64,000 nt of DNA, from positions 86,536 through 150,535 of the forward strand of contig JAFGJS010000054.1 of assembly GCA_016928995.1 (NCBI GenBank). The letters are read 5' to 3'. Positions 6,338 to 64,000 of this stretch are shown one piece after another. This DNA comes from Candidatus Sumerlaeota bacterium (GTDB lineage Bacteria > Sumerlaeota > Sumerlaeia > JAFGJS01). The stretch's first letter is position 1. The number at the start of each line of letters is the position of its first letter. Under the pieces are notes generated by a model that was not told the DNA's origin, did no database searches, and worked only from the letters and a program-made list of their open reading frames with translations. The position numbers and the translations under genes were made by a program.

Positions 6338-6889
6338 GACTCTTTCAATACGTCTCGAGTTAATCACTCATGCTTCACGCGGCGTGTTTCTTTGGACTGC
6401 GCAGGCCATGCCGGCGCCTTGAAACACGAAATGAGATTGCCAGATATCTTTGCTTAGCCGCTTCGCAAAGGCGGCCGCATGGCCGCCGCAGTCCAAGGAA
6501 TCGCGCAACACCAGCTGGTAAGCGGCAGAGTGTAATCGGCTCCGGCGCAGGATGCAATGATATTTGCCGGTTGAAACGACGTGGATGAAGGAGTTTTCAT
6601 CAATGCCCATCGGGATCGGGATCGCTATCGCAATCGGGATCGAAACGGATATTGAGAGAAGAAAATGAAGCAACAAACGCTTGCGATCCCGATGATGATT
6701 AGCGCGGCCTAAACAACTGTAAATTCGAGAGATATACATTTTCATGTGCATGTAACTTTTCCTTCTCATTTGCCTGATCGGTGGCAATAAAAAAGCAACC
6801 AGCATCTTTTTTTTGCTTGCAATGTCAGGTTTCGGGGCTAAAATGGGACTAAAAAAGTACTGATTGTTGCGAGCGGAGCGTTTTGATTT

Positions 6890-7354
6890 ATGTTTCGGAT
6901 GACTAAATTCACTGGTTACGGGGTTGTGCTGCTCATGCATATGGCGCGGCAACCCGATGATGAAACACATAGCGTGACGGAACTGGCCAACGAAGCTTAT
7001 TTGCCGTTGCCCATGGCGCAAAAGGTGCTTAAACGACTGGCGCGAAAGGGTTTGGTCGAGTCGCAGCGCGGCGTAAACGGCGGTTATCGGCTGGCCCGGC
7101 CGGCGGATCGGATCACCGCCCTCGACATCATCGACGCTCTGGAAGGCGCTGTGGCGTTGACGCAATGTGCCGCTGAGCTGGATCTTGGCTCGAAACACGA
7201 TCGCTGCGAGCGCGAGGCGTATTGCGCCGCGAGTCATGCGTGGCAGGAAATCAATCTTATCGTTCAGAACGCGCTGCGCAATGTATCGCTCCGCGATATG
7301 GTTGCGCTGGAATGGGAGAAAAGCGGCCTGCGGATCACTATATCTGGAGAATAA
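6890..7354 (+). CDS. Rrf2 family transcriptional regulator (IscR/SufR-like), upstream of suf operon
   Basis: 154 aa. Rrf2 HTH (ELANEAYLPLPMAQKVLKRLARKGLVESQRGVNGGYRLARP). Cys residues in LTQCA...DRCEREAYC are available for an Fe-S cluster. Sits immediately 5' of sufB. Confidence 0.8.
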   Translation: MFRMTKFTGYGVVLLMHMARQPDDETHSVTELANEAYLPLPMAQKVLKRLARKGLVESQRGVNGGYRLARPADRITALDIIDALEGAVALTQCAAELDLGSKHDRCEREAYCAASHAWQEINLIVQNALRNVSLRDMVALEWEKSGLRITISGE

Positions 7355-7361
7355 CATTTTT

Positions 7362-7405
7362 TTGAGTGAGATTAAGAGCAAGAGCGAGAGCAAGAGTTTA
7401 CACAC
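7362..7405. repeat. AGAGCAAGAGCGAGAGCAAGAG hexamer-periodic repeat (rrf2-sufB spacer)
   Basis: Same motif family as 32283-32432 and 55335-55420. Confidence 0.5.
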
Positions 7406-7435
7406 GAGCAAATTTCATCCGAGGGAATCGTTACT

Positions 7436-17160: not shown

Positions 17161-18261
17161 GTGAAAACGGCCCTGATTCAGGATTGGCTGAACGGCATGC
17201 GCGGCGGGGAAAAGGTGCTGGAGGAGCTCATCGCGCTCTATCCCGGCGCGGATGTGTTTACCTTGTTTTACGAGCCGGACCGCATCAGCGCAACGATCAA
17301 CGCGCAACGGGTGATCGTCTCGCCGTTGCAGCGTCTGCCGTTGGCCCGCACGCATTACCGCTATTACCTCCCGCTGTTTCCCTGGGGCGTGGAGCGTTTT
17401 GATCTGCGCGGTTACGACCTGATTATCTCTTCGAGCCACTGCGCGGCCAAGGGTGTGCGCGTGCCTAGAGGCATTCCGCATCTCTGCTATTGCCATTCGC
17501 CGATGCGCTATGTCTGGGATATGTACGATGCCTATTTTGGCGGGCGCAATCGCTGGAAGCCGGGCGGTTTGGTTATGCCGCTGTTTCGCGGCCGCTTGCA
17601 GCGCTGGGACGTGCGCACGGCCCGGTCGGTCGATCAATTCATTTGCAACAGCCGGCATATCGCGAACAAAATCAAACAATTCTACGGCCGCGAGGCCATT
17701 GTCTGCAATCCGCCGGTGGATCTGGAGAAATTCTCCATCGCCCCGGACGGCCCGGAGGATTATTTTCTGGCGGTCTCCGCGCTCGTACCGTATAAACGGA
17801 TCGATCTGGCCGTGGCGGCCTGCAACCGGCTGCAGCGGCGGTTGATCGTGGCCGGACGCGGGCCGGAGGCGCAACGGATCCGGGCGCTCGCCGGACCGAC
17901 CGTCGAGGTGCGCGACTGGGTGAGCGACGAAGAGCTGGTGCGGCTGTATCAACGCTGCCAGGCCTTCCTCATGCCCGGTCCGGAGGACTTCGGCATCACA
18001 CCCCTGGAGGCCATGGCTTGCGGACGGCCGGTGATCGCCTTGGCCGAAGGCGGCGCGCTGGAGACCGTCGTCGCTGGCAAGACCGGCGAATTTCATAAGG
18101 AGCAGACAACGGAGAGTTTGCTGGAAGTTCTGAAAGCGTTCGATTCCGGAAAATACGATCCGGACGCCATCCGCGCCCACGCCATGACTTTCGGCCAGGA
18201 GCGCTTCAGGGAAGAGATGCGGCAGATCATCGATCAATGCCTCAAGAATACGACGCGATGA
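17161..18261 (+). CDS. glycosyltransferase family 4 (GT-B)
   Basis: 366 aa, GTG start. GT4 C-terminal motif EDFGITPLEAMACGRPVIAL. Confidence 0.75.
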   Translation: MKTALIQDWLNGMRGGEKVLEELIALYPGADVFTLFYEPDRISATINAQRVIVSPLQRLPLARTHYRYYLPLFPWGVERFDLRGYDLIISSSHCAAKGVRVPRGIPHLCYCHSPMRYVWDMYDAYFGGRNRWKPGGLVMPLFRGRLQRWDVRTARSVDQFICNSRHIANKIKQFYGREAIVCNPPVDLEKFSIAPDGPEDYFLAVSALVPYKRIDLAVAACNRLQRRLIVAGRGPEAQRIRALAGPTVEVRDWVSDEELVRLYQRCQAFLMPGPEDFGITPLEAMACGRPVIALAEGGALETVVAGKTGEFHKEQTTESLLEVLKAFDSGKYDPDAIRAHAMTFGQERFREEMRQIIDQCLKNTTR

Positions 18262-18337
18262 AACATATCAAAAATCAAAAAAACTCGGAACTTCTTGCAG
18301 CAGATTCCTGCATAAATCTGGGCGGTGTATATATTCA

Positions 18338-19732
18338 ATGGCTTTTTCTCTTCGAACGATGACTAAAGCGACAAGCATGCCGGGGAAACTGATGCAATGG
18401 CGAGCTGCGTCTGACAATCACGCAGAGGAGGCGCCTGCTGGCTTGCGTTTGATGCATCCGTGTGAAAACTGGGCCGCGATGGGTTTGTTCGCGGTCGTCG
18501 CGCTGGCGCTGAATTCCTTTTATCTGCGTTACAGTCTTCCTCTGGTCGAAGACACGGAGGTGTTGTTTGGCGCGGCGCTGAATGGGCAGTTTGAGTTTTT
18601 TAAGGAATATGCGGGATATATTGCCATCCCGCCCAGAGTATTTTGTCTGATCTGCCAGGTCTTGCCCGTTATGCTGATCCCGAAGGCTTATGTCTTCATC
18701 GCCACAATGTGCAACGCCTTGTGCGCGATGTCGTTTTACCTGCAAATGGCGCATTGGATGCGTTGCTCCCGCCGTTCCGCCGTGGCGTTTTCCTTGCTGT
18801 ACCTGTTCATGTCGAGCGGATGCATCACGTCCTACAACCTGATGTACTGCATCTGGCCGTTATCGCTGGCCGCGATCAATCTTTCGCTGATCTTGCCTCA
18901 ACTCAAAGGCTGGCGCTGGTGGGCGCTGGCGGCGCTGATCGTCTTCGCCGGAATATCGTCGAATCCCCTTTGCGTCATTCTCCCCGCCGGCGCGGCGGTG
19001 TATGCGGTCATGGAGTGCGCCAGGGCAAACTGGAAAAACGCGGCAAGGTATGCTTTTTTCGCCGTGATTCAAATCGTGGTTTTATTGGCCATCATTGAAT
19101 CGCCGCCCGTGACGGTCCTGACCTATACGGATGTCGTCAAAAGGGCTGTTGATGCGATGTATCTGATCCTGGCGCGCGTCATCTCTCCCGTTTCCGGCGC
19201 CATCCATCCGCTGGATTTACAGTTCGTGTTTTTAACGTCCGGTTTTGCGCTGGGCTTCCTGTTTGTGATGCTCTCCAAGGATCGCAGCCGCCACATACAG
19301 TATTACATTTTTGCTGCCATCATCTGCGTGTTCACGTTTCTGCTATGCCTCACCAACCGGTACAATATCTATTATCCGGAAATGATGCATGATGCGGCGC
19401 GGGGGAACAGGTATGTCTATATTCAGTTTTTTTTGTTTCTCGAGCTGCTCTGGATCGCGATCCTGCTGATTCGAAAATCCTTGCCGCGATACGCCGTTCT
19501 TGCTTTATTTGTCGCGCACCTTTGCGGTCCGATTTTGTATTATCCGGCTTTGGTGCAAACGTATGGCGAGCTGGATTATAACGGCGGGGACGATTGGATC
19601 GACCGCAGCAACAGATATAACGACGTGCTTGAAAGTTACGTCCGGCGGATCAATCAAAACGGCGAAGCGAGCGAATTTTACTTGTCGGGATACTGGCGGG
19701 ATCGAGTCTATAAATTGGTGAAGAAAGACTGA
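18338..19732 (+). CDS. polytopic membrane protein of polysaccharide locus (possible GT-C/polymerase-like)
   Basis: 464 aa with at least 10 hydrophobic segments. Sits between GT4 and the priming transferase. No catalytic motif was recognised. Confidence 0.5.
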   Translation: MAFSLRTMTKATSMPGKLMQWRAASDNHAEEAPAGLRLMHPCENWAAMGLFAVVALALNSFYLRYSLPLVEDTEVLFGAALNGQFEFFKEYAGYIAIPPRVFCLICQVLPVMLIPKAYVFIATMCNALCAMSFYLQMAHWMRCSRRSAVAFSLLYLFMSSGCITSYNLMYCIWPLSLAAINLSLILPQLKGWRWWALAALIVFAGISSNPLCVILPAGAAVYAVMECARANWKNAARYAFFAVIQIVVLLAIIESPPVTVLTYTDVVKRAVDAMYLILARVISPVSGAIHPLDLQFVFLTSGFALGFLFVMLSKDRSRHIQYYIFAAIICVFTFLLCLTNRYNIYYPEMMHDAARGNRYVYIQFFLFLELLWIAILLIRKSLPRYAVLALFVAHLCGPILYYPALVQTYGELDYNGGDDWIDRSNRYNDVLESYVRRINQNGEASEFYLSGYWRDRVYKLVKKD

Positions 19733-19735
19733 CGC

Positions 19736-21166
19736 ATGCATCCGCCTGTTCGACATATGGCCAATGTGAAGGCCGTGCAGCACCGGCTGCTGCAGCGGCG
19801 CTTCATTCTGGATTGCGTCATGATTCTCGCCGGCATGCTGTTCGCTTACGCCTTGCGGTTTTATGTGTTGCATTGGCTTAACATCCTGCCCGTCGAAAAG
19901 GGCTACGATCCGCGCGATTACGCCTGGCTGCTGGCCTATGCGCTGCCGGTGATGGTGATGTCTTACAGCTGGACCGGCATGTACGGCTTGCGCGATCCGG
20001 TGTTCAACTACGACATCGGTAAGCGCGTGATTCGCGGAACGCTGCTTGGCGTCGCGCTGGTTCTGACGATCAACTTCTTCTTTCGCGAGGCGGAATACGC
20101 CCGTCCGGTGTTCATGACGGCTCCGTTCAGCGTGATCGGATTCGTCTTCGCCGGGCGGCTCTATTTGCGGCAGTATGTGGACCGCTTGCGCGCTGAACGC
20201 CGCATCGGCGACATCGGCACGCTGATCGTCGGCGCGGGCGACTCCGCACGGCTGCTGATCCGCAAGATCCACGAGCATCCCGAATGCGGCCTTGAGGTTG
20301 GCGGCGCCGTGGCCGCGCAAACCAGCGACGCTCCGGACGAAGTGGAAGGAGTCCCGGTGCTGGGGACGATCAGCGACATGATGCAGATCGTCCGGGAAAA
20401 GAAAATCCGGCGCGTGATTTTCGCCCAGCCGAATCTGACCAATAAGGAAATCTTCGACCTGATGGCGGAATTGGAAAAAGAACTGGTCGATGCGCGCTTC
20501 GTGCCGAATCTGCTGGAGAGCCACTTGACGGATTGTTCGTTCGAGAACCTGGACGGCCTGCCGCTTTTCGGCCTGAAGGATACTCCGTTGCAAGGAATGA
20601 ACCTGGTGGTGAAAAATCTCTTCGACAAAATCGTCAGTTCGATCATGCTGCTGCTGGGCGCGCCGTTCTACGCCTTGATCGCCCTGGCTGTCTGGCTCGA
20701 CTCGGGAAGGCCGCTGTTTTATAAACAGCGCCGCCTGGGCATGGACGGCCGGTCGTACAACATGTATAAATTTCGCTCCATGCGGCTCAACGCGGAGCAG
20801 AACGGACCGGGGTGGACGCGGCCGGACGACGACCGGGTGACGCGGATCGGGCGATTTCTGCGGCGATGGAATTTGGATGAGTGGCCGCAGCTGATCAACG
20901 TCTGGCGCGGCGATATGAGTCTGGTCGGGCCTCGTCCCGAGCGTCCGGAATGGGCGCAAAAATTCAAGGAGGAGTTTCCGCATTACATGATGCGCCACAC
21001 CGTGAAAAGCGGGATGACGGGCTGGGCGCAGGTGAACGGGCTGCGCGGCGACACAGATCTTCAAGCTCGACTTGACGCGGACCTCTATTATATAGAGAAT
21101 TGGACGCTATGGCTTGATATTAAGATTTTGCTGATGACCATGCGAGCGACGAAAAACGCGTATTGA
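19736..21166 (+). CDS. undecaprenyl-phosphate sugar phosphotransferase (WbaP/EpsL-type bacterial sugar transferase)
   Basis: 476 aa. N-terminal TM helices and a C-terminal bacterial sugar-transferase domain (...DEWPQLINVWRGDMSLVGPRPERP...KSGMTGWAQVNG). Confidence 0.85.
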   Translation: MHPPVRHMANVKAVQHRLLQRRFILDCVMILAGMLFAYALRFYVLHWLNILPVEKGYDPRDYAWLLAYALPVMVMSYSWTGMYGLRDPVFNYDIGKRVIRGTLLGVALVLTINFFFREAEYARPVFMTAPFSVIGFVFAGRLYLRQYVDRLRAERRIGDIGTLIVGAGDSARLLIRKIHEHPECGLEVGGAVAAQTSDAPDEVEGVPVLGTISDMMQIVREKKIRRVIFAQPNLTNKEIFDLMAELEKELVDARFVPNLLESHLTDCSFENLDGLPLFGLKDTPLQGMNLVVKNLFDKIVSSIMLLLGAPFYALIALAVWLDSGRPLFYKQRRLGMDGRSYNMYKFRSMRLNAEQNGPGWTRPDDDRVTRIGRFLRRWNLDEWPQLINVWRGDMSLVGPRPERPEWAQKFKEEFPHYMMRHTVKSGMTGWAQVNGLRGDTDLQARLDADLYYIENWTLWLDIKILLMTMRATKNAY

Positions 21167-21199
21167 CGCTAAACCGGCGATCACACGGAAGGAGACGCG

Positions 21200-21598
21200 A
21201 TGCAATTTCTTTCCTTTGAAACGGACCACTTCAACCGGACAGAAGTGCGTGATTACTTCATCAATCCCTGCTGCTTTGGCGACGACGTCGCCACGTGGCT
21301 GATGGCGCAACTGGAAAAGCGCCACGTCAACGTGGCGAAAATCTACCAGGAAGACTGGGGCTGGGAGCTCGATTGCGAGTTCGGCGGCTCCCGGTACTTT
21401 CTCAGCATTGTGCTCGTGGCTGGAGACCAGGATGGGGACTATGGCGAGTGGCGCATTTACGTGACCAAGCAGTGCTCCCTGATCGGGCGCATCTTCGGCA
21501 AGGACAAAATGGTTCGCGAAGAAGCCATCATCGCCGTCGCTCACACAATTTTAAGCGAGGCTCAATTCGGCAACATCCATTGCCTGGCGGAGGTGTAG
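21200..21598 (+). CDS. hypothetical protein (132 aa), convergent with DNA methyltransferase
   Basis: Intact ORF with host-like GC content. No recognisable motifs. Confidence 0.4.
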   Translation: MQFLSFETDHFNRTEVRDYFINPCCFGDDVATWLMAQLEKRHVNVAKIYQEDWGWELDCEFGGSRYFLSIVLVAGDQDGDYGEWRIYVTKQCSLIGRIFGKDKMVREEAIIAVAHTILSEAQFGNIHCLAEV

Positions 21599-21657: not shown

Positions 21658-22629
21658 TTATTTTTTATCAATAACATTCAGGATGGAAAAATAGCCGCGT
21701 CCATATTCCTCGCAGAGCAAATCGATCGCCTGCCGCTTGGTTCCGCATTGTTTTTTATATTGGATGTATTTCTTTTTCACATCACGAAGGTCATGGGGCG
21801 ACCAAGCCTTGCCTTGATTCCTCGGCGTTGAATTTTGAGGAGCAATTAAGGATGATTCATCAAGCTCAACGGCATTCAGTTTGCGTTGCAATCCCTCGAA
21901 TGATTTTGAATTGATTTCAAAGCCGAGAACTCGCCGTTTGAGTCTGAGAGCGGCGAATGCGGTCGAGAAGCTCCCCATGAACAAATCCAAAACGCCGCTG
22001 CCCTCATTGCTGCTGTATAGCAGCATCTTCTTGAGCAATTCATACGGCAGTTCATTTTTGTTCTTCGCTTTGCCCGGTTTATATTCCCGGCGAATCTCCC
22101 AGACGTCTTCCCGGTCGGCATAGTTTTTTTTCTGTCCCGATCCGTTCTGTTCATTTGCGCCGAAGCGGCAGTAGGTGTTGAATGTATGCCTGGCGCCGGG
22201 CTTCACGTAGAACAGAATATGGTAATGCGAGGAGACGTACTTATAGCGCGTGTGCACGCCGAAGTTGTACTTCCAGATGATGTGGTTGACTTCTTCGAGC
22301 GGCGAGTCGGCCAGCGCGTTGAGGATGTGGCGCAGGTTGGTGTAGCCGGAGACGATGTAGATGCTGCCGCCGGGCTTGAGGATACGCGCGGCTTGCTCGA
22401 TCCAGCGGCGGCTGAACTCGGCATAGTCTTCCGCCGGAACTTCGACGTAACCGTCGAGCACGAAGGATTCATCGCGGTTGTAGTGCTTGTGAAGTTTGTC
22501 GCCGTTGATGCCGTAGGGCGGATCGGTGATGATCAGGTCCACGCTATCAGCATCGAGGTGCTTGCAGCCTTCGACACAGTCTTCATTGTAAAACCGATAC
22601 CATTCGGTTTCAATCGGCGGGTGGGGCAT
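21658..22629 (-). CDS. DNA methyltransferase, beta-class (DPPY motif; N6-adenine or N4-cytosine)
   Basis: Motif IV IITDPPYG precedes the AdoMet motif LDLFMGSFSTAFAA (beta permutation). The gene is clearly AT-richer than its flanks. The ATG at ~22629 has an AGGAAG RBS upstream; the ORF-track TTG start is at 22659. Confidence 0.8.
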   Translation of the reverse strand: MPHPPIETEWYRFYNEDCVEGCKHLDADSVDLIITDPPYGINGDKLHKHYNRDESFVLDGYVEVPAEDYAEFSRRWIEQAARILKPGGSIYIVSGYTNLRHILNALADSPLEEVNHIIWKYNFGVHTRYKYVSSHYHILFYVKPGARHTFNTYCRFGANEQNGSGQKKNYADREDVWEIRREYKPGKAKNKNELPYELLKKMLLYSSNEGSGVLDLFMGSFSTAFAALRLKRRVLGFEINSKSFEGLQRKLNAVELDESSLIAPQNSTPRNQGKAWSPHDLRDVKKKYIQYKKQCGTKRQAIDLLCEEYGRGYFSILNVIDKK

Positions 22630-22680
22630 ATACGGCTTCCTGCGTTTTAGCGGAATCAAAGCATCGCCGGACGCGGATTG

Positions 22681-23511
22681 TCAACCTGCGGTTTCTTCGT
22701 CCTGCTCGTCGCGGATCGCTTCGATGTCCAGTGATGCGGCGATCTGCTCGCGCAGGGGATCGAGCCATTCATACGCAGTCCATTCCACGCGCAGCGGCGT
22801 GATCGAGACGCAGCCGCGGCGAACCACGTTCGAATCGGAGTCCGGGATGCGATCCATGGTGATTTGCGTCCCGCTGTTGCAGTAAACCGGCAGGCCGTTG
22901 CGTTCGCCGCTTGGCGTGAAGATGTCCGAATACCAGGCATGGCCCTGGCGTGTCGCCTCGACGCCGCGAATCGTTTCGACGCTCCCGCTGGGCGCGTTGA
23001 CGTTGAGGATCGCGCGCTCCGGGATCCCGCGTTCCAGCGCCATGCGGATGATCTGCGGAAGCACGGCGCAAATGCCGCTGAAATCCGGACGCTCGCGGTT
23101 GAAATCGTAGCACAGCGAAACCGCGATGGCCGGAATGCCGAACATCGCAGCCTCCAGCGCCGCGGCCACGGTTCCCGAATATTGGATGTTGTTGCCCGTG
23201 TTCGAGCCGTTGTTGATGCCGGAGACCACCAGGTCCGGCCGCGGCAGATCAAGGGCAGTGAGGGCGAATTTCACGCAGTCGGCGGGCGTGCCGTCCACGG
23301 CATAGCCCCACACGCGGCCGGAGGAATCGCGGCGCTCCTGCATCGTAAAGTCGTTGAACACTGTCACGGCATGGCTGGCCGCGCTGCGTTCGCGGGAAGG
23401 CGCAACGACATACAGCTCGCCCATGCCGGCGACGGCCTCGCGCAACGCCGTCATCCCCGGCGCGTCGATGCCGTCGTCATTGCAGAGTAAAATGTTTGGA
23501 ATTGTTGACAT
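22681..23511 (-). CDS. surE: 5'/3'-nucleotidase SurE
   Basis: 276 aa. N-terminal ILLCNDDGIDAPG and GINNGSNTG motifs. Confidence 0.9.
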   Translation of the reverse strand: MSTIPNILLCNDDGIDAPGMTALREAVAGMGELYVVAPSRERSAASHAVTVFNDFTMQERRDSSGRVWGYAVDGTPADCVKFALTALDLPRPDLVVSGINNGSNTGNNIQYSGTVAAALEAAMFGIPAIAVSLCYDFNRERPDFSGICAVLPQIIRMALERGIPERAILNVNAPSGSVETIRGVEATRQGHAWYSDIFTPSGERNGLPVYCNSGTQITMDRIPDSDSNVVRRGCVSITPLRVEWTAYEWLDPLREQIAASLDIEAIRDEQDEETAG

Positions 23512-23640: not shown

Positions 23641-24678
23641 CTATACGTTGGCGATCTCGAACGCTTCGGCTTTGTGCAGGAGTTGCTCTTCCTGTTTCAG
23701 CAGCTTGAGGATGGCGGCGTTGGGATTATGCTTGATGGTCTCTTCGGCGCGGATGATGGCATTGCTGATGGCCTTGGCGTCGCTGGAGCCGTGGCAGATG
23801 ACGCAGTTGCCGTTGACGCCGAGCAGCGGCGCGCCGCCCATTTCGGATTTATCCACGCGCTTCATCAGGTTTTTCAGCGATGGCTTGGCGATGAGTCCGC
23901 CGAGCATCGCGATGGGATTGCGCTTGAGCTCGCGTTTCATTTCGCTGAAGAGGAACTTGACCACGGAGGAGCCGAATTTCAGCACGATGTTGCCGACAAA
24001 GCCGTCGCACACGATGACGTCGAACTTGCCGGAGAGGACATCGTTGCCTTCGGCGTTGCCGCCGAAATTCAGCGTGGACTCCTTGAGCAGTTTATACGCC
24101 TGGAGCGTCGTTTCGTCGCCCTTGGTGTCTTCCTCGCCGATGTTGAGCAGCCCGACCAGCGGATTTTCCCGTCCCATCACTTCGTGGGCGTACATGGCGC
24201 CCATCAGCGCGAACTGCAGGAGATTTTCCGGCTTGCAGTCCACAGTCGCGCCGACATCGAGAATCAGAACGGGCCGTAGATGCGTGGGAAAAAGCGTGCT
24301 GATGGCCGGCTTTTTAATGCCTTCCAGCCGGCCGAGTCCGAACAGGGCGTGCGCGGCGGTGGCGCCGGTGGCGCCCGCGGAGATCATCGCGCCGGCCTGG
24401 CCCGCTTTCACCAGTCCCACGGCGACCGCCACGGAGGAGTCTTTCATTTTGAGGGCTTCGCGCGGCTTGATGTGCATGTCCACCACGACGGGCGCGTGAG
24501 CGTAATCGAACGCATCCTCGCTCACGCCGTTCTGGCGCACGATGTCGCGAAGGCGTTGTTCATCGCCAACGAGTGTGATGCGGCTCTCGACGCGATCCAT
24601 CGCCTTCACCGCGCCTGCAATCAACACGCCGGGGCCGTTGTCGCCGCCGAGAGCGTCGAGTGCGATGCGCGAAGTCAT
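23641..24678 (-). CDS. plsX: phosphate acyltransferase PlsX
   Basis: Full-length PlsX similarity (IALDALGGDNGP...). The ATG overlaps the rpmF stop (ATGA), which agrees with the conserved rpmF-plsX order. Confidence 0.9.
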   Translation of the reverse strand: MTSRIALDALGGDNGPGVLIAGAVKAMDRVESRITLVGDEQRLRDIVRQNGVSEDAFDYAHAPVVVDMHIKPREALKMKDSSVAVAVGLVKAGQAGAMISAGATGATAAHALFGLGRLEGIKKPAISTLFPTHLRPVLILDVGATVDCKPENLLQFALMGAMYAHEVMGRENPLVGLLNIGEEDTKGDETTLQAYKLLKESTLNFGGNAEGNDVLSGKFDVIVCDGFVGNIVLKFGSSVVKFLFSEMKRELKRNPIAMLGGLIAKPSLKNLMKRVDKSEMGGAPLLGVNGNCVICHGSSDAKAISNAIIRAEETIKHNPNAAILKLLKQEEQLLHKAEAFEIANV

Positions 24679-24860
24679 GAGTGCACGACGACCCGGTAGG
24701 ACTTGCCTTTGTATTGGCCGCAGGATTTGCAGGCGCGATGCGGCAGTTTCGGTTCGCCGCAGTTTTCGCATTTACTCACGTTCGTGATTTCCTTCATTTT
24801 CAGGTGCGAACGGCGTTTGTCGCTGCGAGCACGGCTGTGTCGTCTTCTTGGTGTGGGCAT
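24675..24860 (-). CDS. rpmF: 50S ribosomal protein L32
   Basis: 61 aa, MPTPRRRHSRARSDKRRSH... with the CxxC...CxxC zinc ribbon. Confidence 0.85.
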   Translation of the reverse strand: MPTPRRRHSRARSDKRRSHLKMKEITNVSKCENCGEPKLPHRACKSCGQYKGKSYRVVVHS

Positions 24861-51979: not shown

Positions 51980-52449
51980 AACGCAGAGACGCGGAGGCGC
52001 GGAGTTTTTTTCAGGTATAACTTTGCGTCGAAATGCTTTCGTATAAAGTTATTTTGCTGTTTAGCGTTCATGCTGATGGCGCTCAACCGGCGTGTTGCTG
52101 ATCGTTCCAATTGATTTCTGATTTTTGAGTTGTAGAATGCAAAACACTCCCGTCGCTGCAAGAATCTGGATCAATGCGGCCAGTGCAGACGCCGAATGGA
52201 ATTCGCCAAGCCGGATATTACGGATCACGTCTGTAATTCCTCCGCCCTGGACCGCATATTGCAGACCGTATCGAATGCTAATACTTGGCGTATCCCCTTG
52301 TCCATGCATCAAGATCAGCCCTGAAATAATGGCGACAACCACGTATGCAAGGATTGCGAAGAAAATATTCCGAAGCATCTTCATATCATTTGCTCGTGGG
52401 CGACCTTTTGAAGTATGAATAAAACTCTGCGCCTTTGCGTCTCTGCGTT
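51980..52449. mobile_element. TIR-bounded ~470-bp element carrying a small AT-rich ORF
   Basis: AACGCAGAGACGCGGAGGCGCGGAG at the left, and the reverse complement of CTCTGCGCCTTTGCGTCTCTGCGTT at the right, matching at about 21 of 25 positions. They enclose ORF 52061-52384. The TIRs resemble the right arm of the 8905-8998 element. Confidence 0.35.
52061..52384 (-). CDS. small membrane protein (hypothetical), AT-rich, inside TIR-bounded element
   Basis: 107 aa with two hydrophobic segments. AT-richer than its surroundings. Flanked by inverted repeats at 51980-52004 and 52425-52449. Confidence 0.35.
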   Translation of the reverse strand: MKMLRNIFFAILAYVVVAIISGLILMHGQGDTPSISIRYGLQYAVQGGGITDVIRNIRLGEFHSASALAALIQILAATGVFCILQLKNQKSIGTISNTPVERHQHER

Positions 52450-56358: not shown

Positions 56359-57573
56359 CTAAAACTGGTGGGCCGTGCTGATACTCTTTGGCCACAGATA
56401 CATGCCGAAGGTATCGCCGGAAAATGTTGATGTTCCCATATACTCCATGTTCAGACTGGCGGCTGTCCGATGGACCTGCATCGAAGTAAATCCCCCGAGA
56501 TTCTTGATGCTGAATGTTTGCCATACATAATTGTCGGTTGTGTTGACTGCGACAATCACCACCCCGTAATTGCGATATGCAGTGACATAAACTCCGGAAG
56601 TGGGTTGATAGGTGCATGAAATGCGCTGTTTGCCTGGAACCACCCACTTGGCAAACTGGCCGATTGTATAGGCGTTCTTGTTAATGGTTCCGCCATTGGT
56701 GACGAGATTGACATCGCTATCATCATCATTAGCCCACCACCAGAAATACGCGCTCATGCTGGCGTTCATGCAATCGCTGATTTCTTTAGCGATAGCCACG
56801 CAGTTGTTGATATCATTGGCGCCGTCTCTGAAATGCTCGGTCATCCAGACTTTTTTTCCGTAGTTGAGCGCGTTTGTATGGGTGTAAAGGCCGCTGCCAT
56901 AAATGTGACCGCCGATGATGTCGATGTTATTACGGGCCGCGGCATTGTTCAAAGTGGGATCCGAATACGAGTCGTTGAATTGATAGGATTCGGGCATCAG
57001 CACGGGTATGTTGATGGAGCCTGCGTTATTCTGGCAGAAGCTGAGCAATTGCGTTGGCGTCCAGTCGCAGGACTCGTAGGTGACGTCGATATCCGGTTCA
57101 TTTTGGATGGAAACGTAATCCAAGTCGATGTAACTCGCTGCGCCATTCAACCAGTTGGCGTAGTTGCTATAATATGAGCTCAGCAGCGATCCGCCGATAT
57201 AATCATTGTTGTCCTTATACCACGGGGGGGGCGTCCAGGGCGTGCCCAGCACCTCGGCGCCGTAGGAATGCGCCGCAGAGGCGTTGTTCTTTTCTGCGTC
57301 CCATCGGCCATTCGAGGAACTGCCCCATGGATCGATGCGGACGCGCAACAGCGAAAATCCGAGTGTGTTGTACAGCGCGTAGTTTTTGGCGGAGCTGAAC
57401 TGTCCGCACCAGGCGCTGGAGCATCCGAATCCATCAATTGATTGATACCTGATGTCGCCGTCGATAATGCAACTGCCCGCATTGGCGTTGATAGAGAGCG
57501 CAGTCATCGCCAGAATGACAAGAAAACTGACGATATTACACGTAGATCTTTTCCAGTCCGTTGCTAATTGCAT
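56359..57573 (-). CDS. glycoside hydrolase family 30 (glucuronoxylanase XynC-like, GH30_8), secreted
   Basis: Signal peptide. DGFGCSSAW, the acid/base motif SIQNEP and the nucleophile region VWMTEH. The gene is AT-rich. The ATG at ~57573 is preferred over the ORF-track start at 57660. Confidence 0.8.
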   Translation of the reverse strand: MQLATDWKRSTCNIVSFLVILAMTALSINANAGSCIIDGDIRYQSIDGFGCSSAWCGQFSSAKNYALYNTLGFSLLRVRIDPWGSSSNGRWDAEKNNASAAHSYGAEVLGTPWTPPPWYKDNNDYIGGSLLSSYYSNYANWLNGAASYIDLDYVSIQNEPDIDVTYESCDWTPTQLLSFCQNNAGSINIPVLMPESYQFNDSYSDPTLNNAAARNNIDIIGGHIYGSGLYTHTNALNYGKKVWMTEHFRDGANDINNCVAIAKEISDCMNASMSAYFWWWANDDDSDVNLVTNGGTINKNAYTIGQFAKWVVPGKQRISCTYQPTSGVYVTAYRNYGVVIVAVNTTDNYVWQTFSIKNLGGFTSMQVHRTAASLNMEYMGTSTFSGDTFGMYLWPKSISTAHQF

Positions 57574-58309
57574 TTTGTTTCTCCTTGGTATGATTTGTTC
57601 AAGCAAACAACATGTTGGCGTACTGCGAAATGACATAACCGCAGTAATGTGCCGATTCATTGCCGTGCTTACCAGAAACCATATTTACTGATTCAATGGC
57701 GCCTCAATGACAGGATCGACAATCTGCTCCATAAACATTGGCGGCTGTTGAATGCCTCCTTTCTTCTTGCCATCGAGTTGGATTGGTATCGGAGTGTGAT
57801 CAATGCAATCCATTGCATAACATGTCACGATGCTGGACTGAATGTATGTCGCGCCGGGGGTTGGCGTTCATCTGGTAGAATCTCATCCCTTTTCCACGGG
57901 CACACACTTTTTGAGCAAAGCGTCAAAAATAATGCAATTGTCTGGTTTGTTTATTTATTTGTATTTTCTGATGAGCACGAGAGGGTTGCACGATATCGAG
58001 GTTTGCCCGCATTCCTGCTTGTATTGGGTATTTTCCGTGTTCATTGGGGAGAAGAAACCTGCATTGCAGTGGATCATAATACGAGCAGTTTGGCTTATCG
58101 TTGCGCATATGGCGACGGCTAATGGCTGATCTGCGGCGCGATAATCACTTGCCTCACTGGCGTTGCATGGCGTAATCTGAGGGCAGCCTGGATTTCTTTC
58201 GTCTAACTTCTAATTGTGTTCATCGTTATTGTAGTAAGAACTTTTTTTCGCATACGTTGTCAGTGGTATAATATTGGCGCTGCATCCCAATCTATGGAGG
58301 ACTCGCACC

Positions 58310-61300
58310 GTGTCGCTCAGAGCATCTATTCTCGCATTGATCGCATTGCTGGCGGCAATGCCGCGATCGCCGTTGGCTCAGGCGGCTGATCGCACGCCAT
58401 CGGCGGACGCCGAACGGGTCGTGTTTGTGCCTTATGAGAAGGCGTCCGGTCCGGAATGGGGCCTGGATCAGTCGGTATTGATCCCTTATGCGGAGTTTTT
58501 GAAGTTGAAGAACGCGGGCGCGGATCCGGCGGCCGCCGCGGATTTTCATCCTGCCGCCGCCATTGCCCAGGCGACGCTGAAGGGGCGAGTGGAAGGGGAT
58601 GTCGCGGTTTTTGACGCGGAGTATGTGATCGAGGTGATGGCGCGCCAGGATGATTTGCTGAAGCTGCGCTTGCCGTTCGAAAATGTTTCGGTGGAGAGCG
58701 TCCAGGTCGAGGGACCGCAGGCGCTGCTGTCGCCTTTCACGAAGACATCGGGCTTTCAGCTGGAGCTGTTGGGGCCGGAGCGGCGGACGTTGCGGATACG
58801 GATGGCGGCGGCGATCCATCAGCAGGGCGCGGCGCAGATCCTGGATTTTCAATTGCCGCGAGCGGCCGCGGCTTCGATGGAGCTCATCGTGGATGAGGAT
58901 GTGGCGCTGGAGAAGATTCCGGACGGCCTGGCCACGGCGATGATAGCGCCGGCGGAAGAGGGGAAGTTTAAAATCACCGCGTCGCTGGGCTCGCAAGGGC
59001 ATGTGCGGCTGGGATACCGTCCGCGTGTGTTGAAAACCGGCGCGGCGGCGCAGAAGAGGATGGCGGTGGATCAGCAGTATCAGCTGTCCGTTTCGCGGCA
59101 GGGCGCGAGGGCCGGCGTGAAGCTGCATGTCGAGCTGCTTTCCGGCGAGATCGATTCGTTTCAGCTCACGCTGCCGGAAGGCGCGCGGTTGCTGAGCGTT
59201 GCCGGGGATTATGTCAAGGACTGGAAGGCGTTGTCCGAGCCGGGAGCGGTTGAGGTGGCTTTGATCGAAAGCATGTCCGAGCCGTTTGAGGTCGCATTGG
59301 ATGTTCAGTATGTGGGCGCGGCGGACGACGGCCGGCTGAATGTGCTTGAGCTGCGTTTGCCCGAGGCGCTGAGAGAGTCGGGGACTATCATCGTGACTCC
59401 GGATCCTGAGGTTTCGGTTTGGCCGGAGCAATCGGCGGGGCTGGATGAGGTTGCGCCGCCGGCTTCGTCCGGGGCGATGGCTCGCGCGTATCAGTTTTCG
59501 CAGCCGGGCTGGACGCTGGAGCTGACGCGCCGCCCGAAGGATGCGCGCGTGCAGTCTTCTTCGATCGTGTTATATGAAGCGACGGAGGATTGGATTCGTT
59601 TAAAGTCGCAGCACCGGCTGGCGATTTTTTCGCGCAGTATTTTCGGTGTGAGTTTTGAAGTTCCGGAGGGCTTTCAATTGCGCGAGGCGGGGCCGCCGGA
59701 GCTGGTGGCCGGTTTCCGGCAGGAGGGCCGCTTGATCGAGCTGACCTTTAACCGGGAACAGAGCGATGCCTGCGAAGTGCGCTTGAGCTTGCAGCGTCCG
59801 CGCGAGGCCGGCGAGGCGGCGTTGCAGTTGCAGCCGATTCGCGTGCAGGGAGCGGAGGAGGACACCGGCGGACTGGCCTTGGCCGCGCCGTTGGCGCTGC
59901 GCGTGGCTGAAGTGGAATCGAGCGGGCTGCATGGGGCGGATGTGCGCACGTTGCAGTCGCGCATCGCGCCGTTGCTTTCGCCGGATTTGACGCCGGCGCT
60001 GGGGTATCAGTTTTTTCAACCGGAATTCGAGGCGACGATATCCATCGAGCGTCAGCGCACGCGGATCAGCTGCGAGACTTCGATTTTGACCTCGATCATG
60101 CCGAATCTGCTGAAGGTGCACGCGACGCTGAATTACAACATCGAGTTTTCGGCGACGGATGAATTGCATCTTCGTGTTCCGGCGAGCATCGGCGAGGACG
60201 TAGTGATCTCCGGCGCGGACATCAAGGAGCGCACGCCAATGAAGGCGCCGGATGATCGCGCTGTTCCGGGCGTGTTGACGATGTGGACGGTGAAGTTGCA
60301 GCGCCGCGTGATCGGCCCGTACCGTTTGCATGTGACTTTTGACGTTCCGCTGAAGGAGGCGGAGCAAGGCAAGCCGATGATTGTCGTGGCGCCAGTGGTC
60401 AGCGCGGCGGACGTGGTTCGCGAGACGGGCTATGCCGGCGTTTCGCGCGGCGAGAATCTGGAGGTGCGCATCGCGAAAAAAGCGGATGCGCTGGAGCTGC
60501 GGGACGTGAAGGAACTGCCGGGCGATTTGGCGAGCGCTTCGCTGGGCTTTCGATATTTTGATCCGAAGGATTTTCAGCTGGAGTTGGAATTGATCCGGCA
60601 TGAGCTGGAGAGCGTGCTGGGGGCGCTGGTGCGCAGGATGCATATCGACACAGTGTTGACGAATCAGCGCGAGGCCGTGCATGAGGCGGTCTTTGAGGTG
60701 CAGAATAACAGCAAACAATACCTGGAGCTGGATCTGCCCGTTGGAATGAAGATCTGGTCGGCGTTCGTGCGGGGCGCGCCGGTGCGGGCCACCAAGCGTC
60801 AGGAGGACGGGGCGTATTTAATCGCGCTGCCCAAATCGCCTTCGATGGACGAGGCTTTTCGCGTGCGGCTGATCCTGCGCGAGACGCTGCCGGGCGGCGC
60901 CATGGGCATATTCGGCAAACTGAAGTTTGATCCGCCGCAGCTAATACAAGGGACGATCCCTGTCTTGCGAGTGACGTGGAAGCTGTATCTTCCGCCGGAT
61001 TATCATTATGTGAAGTTTCGCGGCGGAATGCGGCATGAGACGGGCGGGAGTTCGCCGTGGATCGAGCCGGCGATGGAGAAGCTGCTGAATGATCTTCCGG
61101 CCGGCCTGGCCGGGGGCATCGCGCAACCGGCGCTGAGGCCGAATCAGGCGCGAGTGGGAGTGGCGTATAATTTGCAGGAGACGAACGCGGAGCGGGAGGC
61201 GCGGGTGCAGGGAACCGCGCTGGAAATTCCGATCGTGCGCGAGGGGCTGCAATTTCAATTCAGCAAGCTGAGCGGAACCGGCGACATCCAGGTTGCGTTC

Positions 61301-61687
61301 TGGAAGCGCAAGCCGCTGTTGCTGTTGCAGGGGGCGGTGGGTCTGGCGTTGCTGGTTGGATTGCTCTGGTGGATGCTGCGGGGCGGCGGAAGATTGCGGG
61401 ATTGCTTGCTCGCCGCCGTGGTCTTGTTTATCGCCGCCAGTCTGATGGATGGATTGCTGGGGCGTTTGTTCGCCACAGCGTTCGGCGGTTCCGCCGTAGC
61501 GGTGATCGCTGGCGCGTTCATCGAAGTCCAGCGCCGCGCGAAAATGGCGAAGAAGGATGATGGTTTGCCGCCTTCATCTTCGCCACCGCCTCCGCCAAGC
61601 TCGAGTCAAGCGGATCTGGCTGACGGACCGGATGGAGCGGAGAGCATTGAAGGAGCGGATGATCCCATAACTTCAAACGACGACTGA
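58310..61687 (+). CDS. giant secreted/membrane-anchored protein of unknown function (paralog A)
   Basis: ~1125 aa. GTG start with a GGAGGA RBS (the ORF-track TTG start is at 58274). Signal peptide. Two C-terminal TM helices followed by a Pro/Ser-rich acidic tail. N-terminal module homologous to the next gene. Confidence 0.6.
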   Translation: MSLRASILALIALLAAMPRSPLAQAADRTPSADAERVVFVPYEKASGPEWGLDQSVLIPYAEFLKLKNAGADPAAAADFHPAAAIAQATLKGRVEGDVAVFDAEYVIEVMARQDDLLKLRLPFENVSVESVQVEGPQALLSPFTKTSGFQLELLGPERRTLRIRMAAAIHQQGAAQILDFQLPRAAAASMELIVDEDVALEKIPDGLATAMIAPAEEGKFKITASLGSQGHVRLGYRPRVLKTGAAAQKRMAVDQQYQLSVSRQGARAGVKLHVELLSGEIDSFQLTLPEGARLLSVAGDYVKDWKALSEPGAVEVALIESMSEPFEVALDVQYVGAADDGRLNVLELRLPEALRESGTIIVTPDPEVSVWPEQSAGLDEVAPPASSGAMARAYQFSQPGWTLELTRRPKDARVQSSSIVLYEATEDWIRLKSQHRLAIFSRSIFGVSFEVPEGFQLREAGPPELVAGFRQEGRLIELTFNREQSDACEVRLSLQRPREAGEAALQLQPIRVQGAEEDTGGLALAAPLALRVAEVESSGLHGADVRTLQSRIAPLLSPDLTPALGYQFFQPEFEATISIERQRTRISCETSILTSIMPNLLKVHATLNYNIEFSATDELHLRVPASIGEDVVISGADIKERTPMKAPDDRAVPGVLTMWTVKLQRRVIGPYRLHVTFDVPLKEAEQGKPMIVVAPVVSAADVVRETGYAGVSRGENLEVRIAKKADALELRDVKELPGDLASASLGFRYFDPKDFQLELELIRHELESVLGALVRRMHIDTVLTNQREAVHEAVFEVQNNSKQYLELDLPVGMKIWSAFVRGAPVRATKRQEDGAYLIALPKSPSMDEAFRVRLILRETLPGGAMGIFGKLKFDPPQLIQGTIPVLRVTWKLYLPPDYHYVKFRGGMRHETGGSSPWIEPAMEKLLNDLPAGLAGGIAQPALRPNQARVGVAYNLQETNAEREARVQGTALEIPIVREGLQFQFSKLSGTGDIQVAFWKRKPLLLLQGAVGLALLVGLLWWMLRGGGRLRDCLLAAVVLFIAASLMDGLLGRLFATAFGGSAVAVIAGAFIEVQRRAKMAKKDDGLPPSSSPPPPPSSSQADLADGPDGAESIEGADDPITSNDD

Positions 61688-61697
61688 GGATTGCGCC

Positions 61698-64000
61698 ATG
61701 AAGCTTCGAATACAGAGCATGTTCGTTTTTTTCATCGCTGGCGCAATCGGGTCGGCGGCGCCGGCGTTGGCGGCCGCCTCAACGGATGTTGCGCCGGTTG
61801 AGGTTTTCTATATTCCGCAGGAGGATCTGGCGCGCGGACCGGGGTATGCGAGCGAGGGTTTGTATCTGCCGTTGTCCGAGCTGCTGGAGCTGGCGGCGCA
61901 CGCTCAGGGCGCTTCGGAGAAGCGCGAGACCCTGAGCGGCGTCTGCTGCCGGTCGCTGAATTTGTCCGGAACGTTGAAGGAGGGGCTGGCCCTGGAGGGC
62001 GAGCTGTCGTTCGTGGCGGCGGGCGATGGCTGGTCGGCGGTTTTGGTCGATGACGGGGGGATTCCCTGGCTTTCGCAGGCATCGCCGGAGACGGCGCCGG
62101 CGTTTTTGTCTCGCGTACGCGGAAAGACTTTTCTTTTTGCGCGCGGACCGTCCGAGGGTGTGGTTCGGCTGAAGGCGTTTGTTCCGGCGCGGGGCGATGG
62201 CGTTGTTCTCCAGGCGTCGCTGGGGCGGATTTTTGCTCCGTGCCGCGTGACGCTGGATCACGACGAGAGCATCGCGTTTGATACAGCGTCGGCGCCAGCT
62301 GATGCGTCGCCGGCGCAGCTGCGTCTTTGGCCTGCGCAGGGGGCGCCTGTCGAGCTGCGATACCGCATGAAGGCCGGATTTCAGGCGCCGGCCGCTTTGC
62401 GCGTCGAGCATGCGCGCGAGATCAAGGCTGCCGGCGGGGGATTGCAGCTCGAGGATGAGCTGACTCTGGCAGGAAGGTTTTCGCCCGGAGAGCCGATTCA
62501 ATTTGCGCTGCCGGAACAGATGCGGCTGTTGCGCGCGACGACCTCGGATGCGGCGGAGGTTCGTATCGATGACGCCGCGTTGACGGTCGTTCCACTGCAA
62601 CATTGTGAAACGTTGAAGATTTGGGCGTCGTTGGCCGTTGATGCGGTTGAGGGACGGGCGGTGTTGAAGCCGTGGAAGTTCGATGCGCAGGCGGTTTATT
62701 CTAGCGTGCGGCTGATCGCTTCGCCGCAGTATGCGCCTGTGCCGGTGGATTGGCCGGAGGAGCTGTTTCCCGCGGCTGGCGGCGCCGCGGACCGTCATTA
62801 CGAGTGCTGGGGGGCGTTGCCTGAATTGAGCGTCGCGCTGGCGGACGCCTCGCCGCCGCAGCCTTTGCGTGTTTCGGCGCTGCTGACGCTGGCGGAGAAT
62901 GCGGCGACGGTTGAGTATTATGTGGAGCTCACGGATCCCCATCAGCGCGAGATTCGATTTCAACTGCCGGTGGATTGGGTTTTGACGGAGCTGACGGCGA
63001 CGCGCGGCAAACAAATCGCGCCCGTGGCCGTTCAGCAGGAAGACGACCGCTGGTGGCGAGTGACCGGCGCTCCGTCGCAGAATCCGGGAGCGGTTCGTTT
63101 TTCTTTGCGGCGGATGGAGCAATGGGGCCGGGCGGATGAGGCGACGACGCTGGAACTGCCGCTGGCGCGGTTCGTTGGATTGCGTCCGTCGCTTTATGAG
63201 CTGCGGATCGCCTGGCCGGAAGGCCTGGAAGCGCGCGTGGCGCAGTTGTCGTCGATGGTTGTGACGCCGGTGGGCGGAAGTTTTGTCTTGCCGTCGCCGG
63301 GCGACCGTGAGGCTCAGCTGGCATTGCAGGCGGAGGGGGATGCGCCGTCCGGCTCGCTGGCCGTGCGGATGCGTGAGGCGGAGCAACGGGTGACGGTGGT
63401 GACGGTTCTTTCCGTGCAGGAGGATCGGGCCAACATCCGGGCCTTGCTGTCTTATGAGACGCGGTTTGCGCCCAGCCGCGCGTTCCGTTTTAGCTTGCCT
63501 GCGGGCACGGGCTCGAACGTGCGCATTGAGGGCGAGGGAATCCGCGAGACATCGCTGCAGGAGACAGCGGAAGGCGACGTCTGGACCGTGATTGCGCAGC
63601 GCGATGTGCTGGGCGAGTTTCAATTGACGTTGGAGTGGAGTCTGGACGCCAAGCCAGGCGCGAAGGCGATTCAGGCGCCGGAGATCCGGCTGCCGGACAT
63701 TGCGATGCAACAGGGTTTCATTGTGCTGGAAGGCTCCCAGACCTTGCTGCTGAATACGGAAAGCAAGAATCTGGCTGAGACGGAGCTGTCCGAGCTGCCG
63801 CCGTTGCCCTGGCCCCGAGAGAACCGGCTGCTGGCGGTGTATCGCTATATTGAACCGCCGTTTTTGTTGAGCGTGCAGGCGGAGAAACTGGAGCCGGAGC
63901 CGGCGCTGGAAGGCTTGGCGGATAAGGCGGAACTGGTGACGACGGTGGCCGCGAACGGTGAGCGTTTAACGCGGGCGCGGTACGATGTGAAGCCGACGAA
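61698..64000 (+). CDS. giant secreted protein of unknown function (paralog B), 3'-truncated by window edge
   Basis: ATG at 61698, signal peptide MKLRIQSMFVFFIAGAIGSAAPALAAAS. Open to the end of the window (>760 aa). N-terminal VEVFYIPQEDLARGPGYASEGLYLPLSELLEL aligns with VVFVPYEKASGPEWGLDQSVLIPYAEFLKL of paralog A. Confidence 0.55.
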   Translation, partial: MKLRIQSMFVFFIAGAIGSAAPALAAASTDVAPVEVFYIPQEDLARGPGYASEGLYLPLSELLELAAHAQGASEKRETLSGVCCRSLNLSGTLKEGLALEGELSFVAAGDGWSAVLVDDGGIPWLSQASPETAPAFLSRVRGKTFLFARGPSEGVVRLKAFVPARGDGVVLQASLGRIFAPCRVTLDHDESIAFDTASAPADASPAQLRLWPAQGAPVELRYRMKAGFQAPAALRVEHAREIKAAGGGLQLEDELTLAGRFSPGEPIQFALPEQMRLLRATTSDAAEVRIDDAALTVVPLQHCETLKIWASLAVDAVEGRAVLKPWKFDAQAVYSSVRLIASPQYAPVPVDWPEELFPAAGGAADRHYECWGALPELSVALADASPPQPLRVSALLTLAENAATVEYYVELTDPHQREIRFQLPVDWVLTELTATRGKQIAPVAVQQEDDRWWRVTGAPSQNPGAVRFSLRRMEQWGRADEATTLELPLARFVGLRPSLYELRIAWPEGLEARVAQLSSMVVTPVGGSFVLPSPGDREAQLALQAEGDAPSGSLAVRMREAEQRVTVVTVLSVQEDRANIRALLSYETRFAPSRAFRFSLPAGTGSNVRIEGEGIRETSLQETAEGDVWTVIAQRDVLGEFQLTLEWSLDAKPGAKAIQAPEIRLPDIAMQQGFIVLEGSQTLLLNTESKNLAETELSELPPLPWPRENRLLAVYRYIEPPFLLSVQAEKLEPEPALEGLADKAELVTTVAANGERLTRARYDVKPT

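Follow-up and report, generated by a model that had tools for sequence, protein, structure and literature searches.

A probable solitary Type II beta-class DNA methyltransferase beside surE in a Candidatus Sumerlaeota genome

This 64-kb stretch of a Candidatus Sumerlaeota genome (hereafter the window, to which all statements on the absence of partner genes refer) carries on its reverse strand a gene for a DNA methyltransferase (MTase), directly downstream of surE. From its sequence and a predicted structure, we consider this MTase likely to be an intact solitary (orphan) Type II enzyme, a beta-class DNA amino-MTase of a known family, most probably specific for adenine N6. The convergent gene on its other side, which encodes a protein of 132 aa (orf132), is unrelated to the MTase, and there is no cognate nuclease in the window. 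The gene and its motifs are as follows.

21658..22629, reverse strand: MTase coding sequence, stop included, 323 aa, beta-class N6/N4 amino-MTase (list of open reading frames (ORFs), Pfam, PADLOC, Foldseek)
22636..22641, reverse strand: Shine-Dalgarno sequence AGGAAG, 6 nt 5' of the ATG at 22629 (sequence reading)
22510..22533, reverse strand: catalytic motif IV, IITDPPYG, residues 33-40, with DPPY at 36-39
21961..21987, reverse strand: S-adenosylmethionine (AdoMet) motif I, DLFMGSFST, residues 215-223

The methyltransferase and its family

The protein matched the Pfam family PF01555 (N6_N4_Mtase) over residues 30-245, with a score of 131.8 bits (cut-off 26.7; E=4.6e-38). Motif IV lies N-terminal to motif I, and the enzyme therefore has the beta-class order. 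Beta-class MTases carry motif IV before motif I, and those tested act as a dimer or multimer (PMC10406627). An alignment of 29 family sequences showed T35, D36, P37, P38, Y39 and G40 to be invariant, whereas motif I has a family-specific form, with D215, F217, G219 and F221 invariant and serine or glycine at position 220. The catalytic core of the family contains about 100 invariant columns in this alignment, all of which are kept in the window MTase. An alternative TTG start at 22659 would add 10 residues; the aligned homologues begin instead near the ATG at 22629, which we therefore prefer.

An AlphaFold2 model of the MTase, built from the 29 family sequences (mean pLDDT 80.6), was matched by Foldseek with a probability of 1.0 to CcrM, M.BceJIV, N4CMT, M.RsrI, M.MboIIA and M.PvuII. 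The first-pass annotation, made from the DNA letters and their ORFs, had described the gene as a beta-class MTase with a DPPY motif, and this is borne out by the PF01555 score, by the position of IITDPPYG before DLFMGSFST and by the structural matches to beta-class enzymes. The rotifer cytosine-N4 enzyme N4CMT has SPPY where CcrM has DPPY (PMC10406627). Motif IV of the window MTase is of the DPPY form, unlike that of N4CMT, and the enzyme is therefore probably N6-adenine-specific, DPPY rather than SPPY being a tendency and not a rule.

The PADLOC MTase_II model PDLC03296 aligned with residues 11-322 of the MTase (profile positions 9-326 of 336; E=1.2e-114). As this match is full-length and includes the C-terminal domain, the family is already catalogued. 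However, the PADLOC output gives no recognition sequence or named enzyme for the model, so that no specificity can be transferred from it, and the window gene has no adjacent nuclease. A protein database search returned more than 3,000 homologues, the closest of which, other than the protein itself, was 63% identical. The MTase, orf132 and SurE each had an identical NCBI counterpart, all three on a single contig of 169 kb. Full-length homologues with 53-62% identity came from both bacteria and archaea: Neomarinimicrobiota, Coatesbacteria, Alpha- and Gammaproteobacteria, Bacteroidota, Calditrichia, Anaerolineae, Planctomycetota, Spirochaetes, Thermoplasmata, Methanoculleus and Methanohalophilus. 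The plasmid (PLSDB) and phage (INPHARED) collections contained no family members, only distant beta-class MTases with about 30-32% identity, and IMG/VR held a mere handful of family members, on large contigs of 140-330 kb.

A 154-aa ORF lies antisense within the MTase gene (22186..22650, forward strand). In a comparison set of 83 family members, the length of the antisense open stretch tracked GC content, with a median of 76 codons in low-GC and 217 codons in high-GC homologues. We therefore rejected this ORF as a gene and consider it to be a compositional shadow ORF.

The C-terminal domain and comparison with known enzymes

The first-pass annotation had also remarked on a lysine-rich C-terminal extension. 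Such an extension is indeed present, at residues ~252-323 (13% lysine; lysine and arginine together 19% over the last 68 residues), and it consists of two parts.

21799..21876, reverse strand: linker, residues 252-277, about 26 residues of predicted coil ending in NQGKxW (AlphaFold2, alignment)
21664..21798, reverse strand: three-helix domain resembling a helix-turn-helix (HTH), residues 278-322, with helices at 278-295, 298-309 and 313-322

The helices were modelled with pLDDT values of 90-94. The domain is found throughout the family, and the extension has the consensus NQGKPW(T/S)..E...L..RY......TKK..I..L.EEFGRG.F.ILN. Residues K298, R311 and G312 were invariant in the 29-sequence alignment and L305 and G310 nearly so, as was W276, which belongs to the NQGKxW that closes the linker just upstream.

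A profile of the domain gave nothing significant against PDB sequences and Pfam, and the direct Pfam matches were below threshold (HTH_58, E=0.054; HTH_41, E=0.072). The same profile, searched against 1.84 billion representative sequences, recovered 160 proteins, most of them MTase C-termini, and also proteins composed of five to seven tandem related units of about 70 residues (for example P0276, E=2e-23). The repeats of these tandem proteins matched Fe_dep_repress, MarR_2, HTH_24 and other HTH models of Pfam, weakly but in some cases above the cut-offs. The predicted three-helix fold and the tandem repeats that match HTH families therefore lead us to interpret the C-terminal domain as a putative HTH-type DNA-binding module, by predicted fold and remote homology. 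The tandem-repeat proteins (P0276, P0323, P0365, P0376 and P0379) share the pattern NPNK..F/Y-S/T..E-I/L..IK.RY.EL...G.....IA..I..ELGRS..SV..KI, and no Pfam repeat family covers them.

The model came closest to the structure of Caulobacter crescentus CcrM (PDB 6pbd), with a Foldseek E value of 1.3e-17 across 301 columns; CcrM is an orphan adenine MTase that recognises GANTC. The two enzymes share the beta-class order, the DPPY motif, a solitary gene and an extra C-terminal domain beyond the core. However, they are only 22-23% identical, and the NCBIfam equivalog NF050803 scored 87.3 bits against a cut-off of 830, aligning at positions 6-256 of 350. The window MTase's C-terminal domain is a bundle of three helices (about 45 residues) without a sequence match to the 83-residue domain of CcrM. 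A CcrM/HinfI-type C-terminal domain is thus absent from the window MTase, given that no alignment with the CcrM profile extends beyond position 256 and that the domain modelled here is a three-helix bundle with no sequence match in the PDB. In CcrM and M.HinfI, the unrelated 83-residue domain binds the non-target strand and is required for activity (PMC10359602, PMC10406627). By analogy, a comparable auxiliary role is plausible for the domain described here.

Among sequences of known structure, the best match was to M.BceJIV of Burkholderia cenocepacia (PDB 8urk/9c3s/9c3u), a beta-class adenine MTase aligning with residues 12-253 (E=8e-21; 27-29% identity; Foldseek TM 0.69 normalised to the target). 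This enzyme has 249-283 residues and lacks the C-terminal domain described here. The best NCBIfam match (NF008572; E=2.7e-28, residues 12-274) was to YhdJ, the solitary beta-class adenine MTase of E. coli and Salmonella, but the score of 98.9 bits stays far short of the equivalog cut-off (292) and indicates that the window MTase is not its orthologue. M.RsrI, M.MboIIA, M.PvuII and the rotifer N4CMT have the same beta-class fold with 16-26% identity, and none of them has this C-terminal domain; M.PvuII and N4CMT are cytosine-N4 enzymes.

Candidate partners and the convergent gene orf132

No restriction endonuclease lies adjacent to the MTase, which is flanked by surE and orf132. Genes around the MTase were clustered in 80 genome loci of the family. 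No universal neighbour emerged, but four neighbours were recurrent.

C1: about 215-230 aa, 20 of the 80 loci, in most cases on the same strand and 3 bp upstream, with a conserved D...D-x-K
C3: about 312 aa, 10 loci, without a database match
C4: about 392 aa, 6 loci, including one of Sumerlaeota, with a helix-hairpin-helix and a four-cysteine motif
C7: a Dam-type D12 MTase, 5 loci, in Methanoculleus

C1 (L062:5351-5995, L047:2335-3027 and 18 more loci) has an invariant D74...D82-x-K84 together with QMEW and WH..LKGG.S.YE, and we regard it as a candidate uncharacterised restriction enzyme of the PD-(D/E)xK type. C4 (L001:9034-10209, L021:7026-8201, L025:433-1620 and L077:4856-5998) carries the motif GLGKAIGDKA.HLFAKW and the cysteine pattern C-x6-C-x2-C-x5-C. 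Its cysteine cluster weakly matches the Fe-S loop of MutY (E=0.08), and by these motifs C4 could be a glycosylase-type restriction or repair partner. C3 (L057:7032-8006, L017:5017-5955 and others) is also present in cultured Methanohalophilus species. Searches with Pfam, PADLOC and PDB profiles gave no match for C1 and C3, and only the weak MutY match for C4. As these three could not be named, a recognition sequence cannot be deduced from the partners. In five Methanoculleus loci (L035, L040, L053, L055 and L065), the MTase is followed by a Dam-type adenine MTase (Pfam D12 class) in a two-MTase arrangement. The second gene begins about 90-170 bp downstream of the MTase match or, where the ORF was called long (L053 and L055), overlaps its end.

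A tblastn search of the window with C1, C3, C4 and C7 gave a best E value of 0.15, with no trace of a partner or of a nuclease pseudogene. PADLOC found no match in 10 further window ORFs, namely 8 without a Pfam match or otherwise unscanned, the ORF at 56359-57660 and the MTase-adjacent membrane ORF at 18338-19732. We found no papers on restriction-modification (R-M) in Sumerlaeota. The family is one of Type II R-M MTases that are often found alone. With no recognisable restriction partner nearby, the earlier suggestion that the gene could be an orphan stands.

These data bear on whether a complete Type II R-M system might have decayed here, its nuclease having been lost and its MTase persisting by inertia while drifting to inactivity. 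An R-M ancestry is likely, given that about 45% of the family loci elsewhere have a recurrent candidate partner, and the divergence of residues 163-250 exceeds the family average by about 11 points. However, the reading frame is intact, all the family-invariant residues are kept, including motifs IV and I and K298/R311/G312, and no pseudogene trace of a nuclease remains in the window. In addition, surE and the MTase are paired again in a relative with no more than 51% identity in SurE (see below), which argues for long retention under selection. We thus consider a decaying remnant unlikely.

The first-pass annotation had pointed to the convergent ORF as the only neighbour that might be a partner.

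21200..21598, forward strand: orf132, 132 aa, a conserved small protein, convergent with the MTase and 59 nt from it

This ORF exists and has a host-like composition, as had been stated. It is probably the last gene of a forward-strand polysaccharide run (17161-21598), which includes a GT4 glycosyltransferase, a membrane protein and an undecaprenyl-phosphate sugar transferase. We identified 35 homologues with an invariant FN...NPCCFG.D...QEDWGW signature. Their genomic context could be read in three cases, L084 and L085/L086, the latter two showing the same arrangement; in these contexts there is no MTase, and the homologue follows selA or lies near ubiX/ubiA. No relatives of orf132 were present among the neighbours of the 83 MTase loci. 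The structure predicted for the protein, a confident model, is an alpha/beta sandwich without a nuclease match. At L084:6001-6417 and L085:1116-1562, in unrelated genomes, the orf132 homologue is followed by a conserved 80-aa ORF.

A new R-M or toxin-antitoxin-like pair, in which orf132 would be a small nuclease, might be imagined from the adjacent convergent position, from the lack of an annotated function and from the conserved acidic motif QEDWGW. Given that the homologues occur in housekeeping contexts without an MTase, that none lies beside an MTase locus and that the modelled fold is not that of a nuclease, we exclude orf132 as an unrecognised nuclease partner, and such a pair is highly improbable. 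The structure prediction that had been proposed as a search for a nuclease fold in the 132-aa protein has thus spoken against one.

Linkage to surE, composition and descent

22681..23511, reverse strand: surE, 5'/3'-nucleotidase, directly 5' of the MTase with a 51-nt gap (Pfam, NCBIfam SurE)

On the same strand, the upstream order is surE followed by plsX, rpmF and yceD. The surE-MTase gap contains only a weak 5-bp hairpin, and the spacing and orientation of the two genes suggest that they are probably co-transcribed. The closest match to SurE, other than itself, was 50-52% identical, with most such matches on contigs of 1-3 kb, and no orthologous locus of a close relative was found in the databases searched.

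In the nearest available relative, L087 (SRR28370423), an MTase homologue with 59% identity directly follows surE, its ATG overlapping the surE stop codon (ATGA). The SurE of L087 is about 51% identical to that of the window, and its MTase has a GC content at third codon positions (GC3) of 0.856, close to that of its surE (0.833). As the surE-MTase pairing recurs in L087, the MTase appears to be a long-term resident beside surE in this lineage rather than a fresh insertion. Two further family loci (L003 and L093) have surE within 5 kb of the MTase, as opposed to none of the 80 genome loci, and surE does not precede the best MTase match (P0002). Two observations that the first-pass annotation had named as telling against its own reading were at least partly made: a host-GC MTase at surE in L087, and conservation of orf132 elsewhere without an MTase.

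The linkage to surE could also be taken to indicate a conserved orphan that serves this lineage as an epigenetic regulator of the CcrM/Dam type, in the cell cycle or in gene regulation, and that is kept near surE in a sub-lineage of Sumerlaeota. The coupling in L087 and the proximity of surE in L003 and L093 are in favour of this proposal, as is an extra C-terminal domain of putative DNA-binding type recalling that of CcrM. The MTase is also solitary amid housekeeping genes in P0005 and P0010, which have the longest contigs in a small neighbour-joining group. However, the CcrM equivalog failed (87 bits against 830) and the C-terminal domain is unrelated to that of CcrM. In other Sumerlaeota the family members lie elsewhere in the genome, in one case beside a C4 partner, and the star-like tree lends no support to vertical descent. 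We therefore see a regulator of this type as a rather doubtful alternative to a solitary Type II MTase.

The first-pass annotation had considered the gene to be AT-richer than its flanks and had seen in this a sign of horizontal acquisition. The first part holds for the gene as a whole (GC 0.512, against 0.582 for the window), which has a GC3 of 0.657; the corresponding GC and GC3 values are 0.635 and 0.794 for surE and 0.554 and 0.744 for orf132. The deficit is not uniform, however, since codons 1-162, about the 5' 60% of the gene, have a host-like GC3 (0.72-0.85) and host codon usage. Moreover, the MTase averages 4 GC points below its flanks across 74 family loci. A regression of MTase GC on flank GC over these loci (slope 0.80, intercept 0.05; r=0.86) gives an expected 52.3% for this host, against an observed 51.2%. 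The AT-richness is thus a family-typical offset that does not in itself point to recent transfer, and the MTase that directly follows surE in L087 has a host-like GC content, so that the interpretation as horizontal acquisition is not supported.

The 3' end of the gene is more anomalous.

21661..21969, reverse strand: 3' tract with anomalous codon usage, the last ~100 codons, GC3 about 0.37-0.53 (sliding GC3, codon counts)

In the last 80 codons, GC3 is 0.457; the minimum among 691 stretches of this length, taken from 28 other window genes, is 0.487. The GC3 gradient within the gene is the most extreme of the 83 family members (z=-4.3). The synonymous preference flips from AAG/AAC/TAC/ATC to AAA/AAT/TAT (Fisher test on two-fold codons, p=1.7e-4). 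It is therefore conceivable that the gene was acquired recently by horizontal transfer, or that at least its 3' third was, in which case an AT-richer allele of the same family would have recombined with the gene and replaced about 300 nt. Mobility of the family is clear from its 53-63% identity across bacterial and archaeal phyla, whereas SurE has at most 52% identity to anything else, and the GC of certain members falls well short of that of their flanks, as in the Alistipes loci (36% against 53%). Transfer of the whole gene is at odds with the host-like GC3 of codons 1-162, with the family-typical overall GC and with the surE linkage in L087. As regards partial replacement, blastn among the family loci revealed no donor for the low-GC3 3' end (best matches 40-66 nt with 74-85% identity), and no homologue resembles the C-terminal domain more closely than family members usually do. 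Recent acquisition, whole or partial, is consequently not the explanation we favour, but we give it some weight.

Several observations weigh against the interpretation of the MTase as an intact, long-resident solitary enzyme. The 3' codon usage looks foreign and residues 163-250 have diverged more than usual (56.8% identity, against a family mean of 67.6%), which together could reflect relaxed constraint or a recent partial replacement. The neighbour-joining tree is star-like, and the window and L087 MTases were sisters in only 8 of 200 bootstraps. The L087 contig stops inside the MTase gene, so that the downstream context is not visible. Spacing and orientation are the sole basis on which co-transcription with surE is inferred. 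Finally, the partner search covers only these 64 kb, and an unlinked nuclease may lie elsewhere in the genome.

The remaining genes of the window are housekeeping genes, including argG and those for a class A penicillin-binding protein (PBP), an alpha-2-macroglobulin and PPK2. The longest plsX ORF (23641-24771, reverse strand) shares about 97 nt with rpmF (24675-24860, reverse strand). Its Pfam match begins at residue 35, and the gene probably starts further downstream. Other ORFs of low GC (0.46-0.52) are located at 56359-57660, 52061-52384 and 6368-7411 on the reverse strand and at 57649-58122 on the forward strand. That at 56359-57660 has a weak match to a GH59-like glycosyl hydrolase; the others have no Pfam or PADLOC match, and some may be miscalled shadow ORFs. 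Two large ORFs, at 58274-61687 (forward strand, 1137 aa) and 61779-63710 (reverse strand, 643 aa), have a host-like GC content and no Pfam or PADLOC match.

If the MTase is a solitary Type II enzyme, as we suggest, it would be transcribed together with surE and translated from its own ribosome-binding site, and it would act as a dimer like other beta-class enzymes. The target base would be flipped into the DPPY pocket, and the methyl group transferred from AdoMet bound at DLFMGSFST. The HTH-like C-terminal domain may serve as an extra module for holding DNA, functionally analogous but not homologous to the domain of CcrM and M.HinfI. With the nuclease absent, methylation would be an epigenetic mark or would protect against incoming R-M systems of the same specificity (common in this family). 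A more elaborate and improbable scenario is that, in a deep sub-lineage of Sumerlaeota, a Type II-family MTase was permanently domesticated and became, as a solitary enzyme coupled to surE, a CcrM-like epigenetic regulator. The HTH-like domain would then take the strand-holding role of the CcrM domain, and the odd 3' codon usage would be the trace of recent recombination with an incoming allele, in which the DNA-binding module, and possibly the specificity, was exchanged.

For the window itself the matter is small, as it concerns a probable solitary member of a catalogued Type II MTase family, for which the suspected new nuclease partner is excluded. For the family, the analysis has a wider bearing. 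Its GC content below that of the host is a family property and, alone, no indicator of recent transfer, and its C-terminal HTH-like domain is covered by no Pfam model. In other genomes the members of this single, tightly conserved family are paired with uncharacterised candidate nucleases of at least three unrelated kinds, one of which resembles a helix-hairpin-helix iron-sulfur glycosylase.

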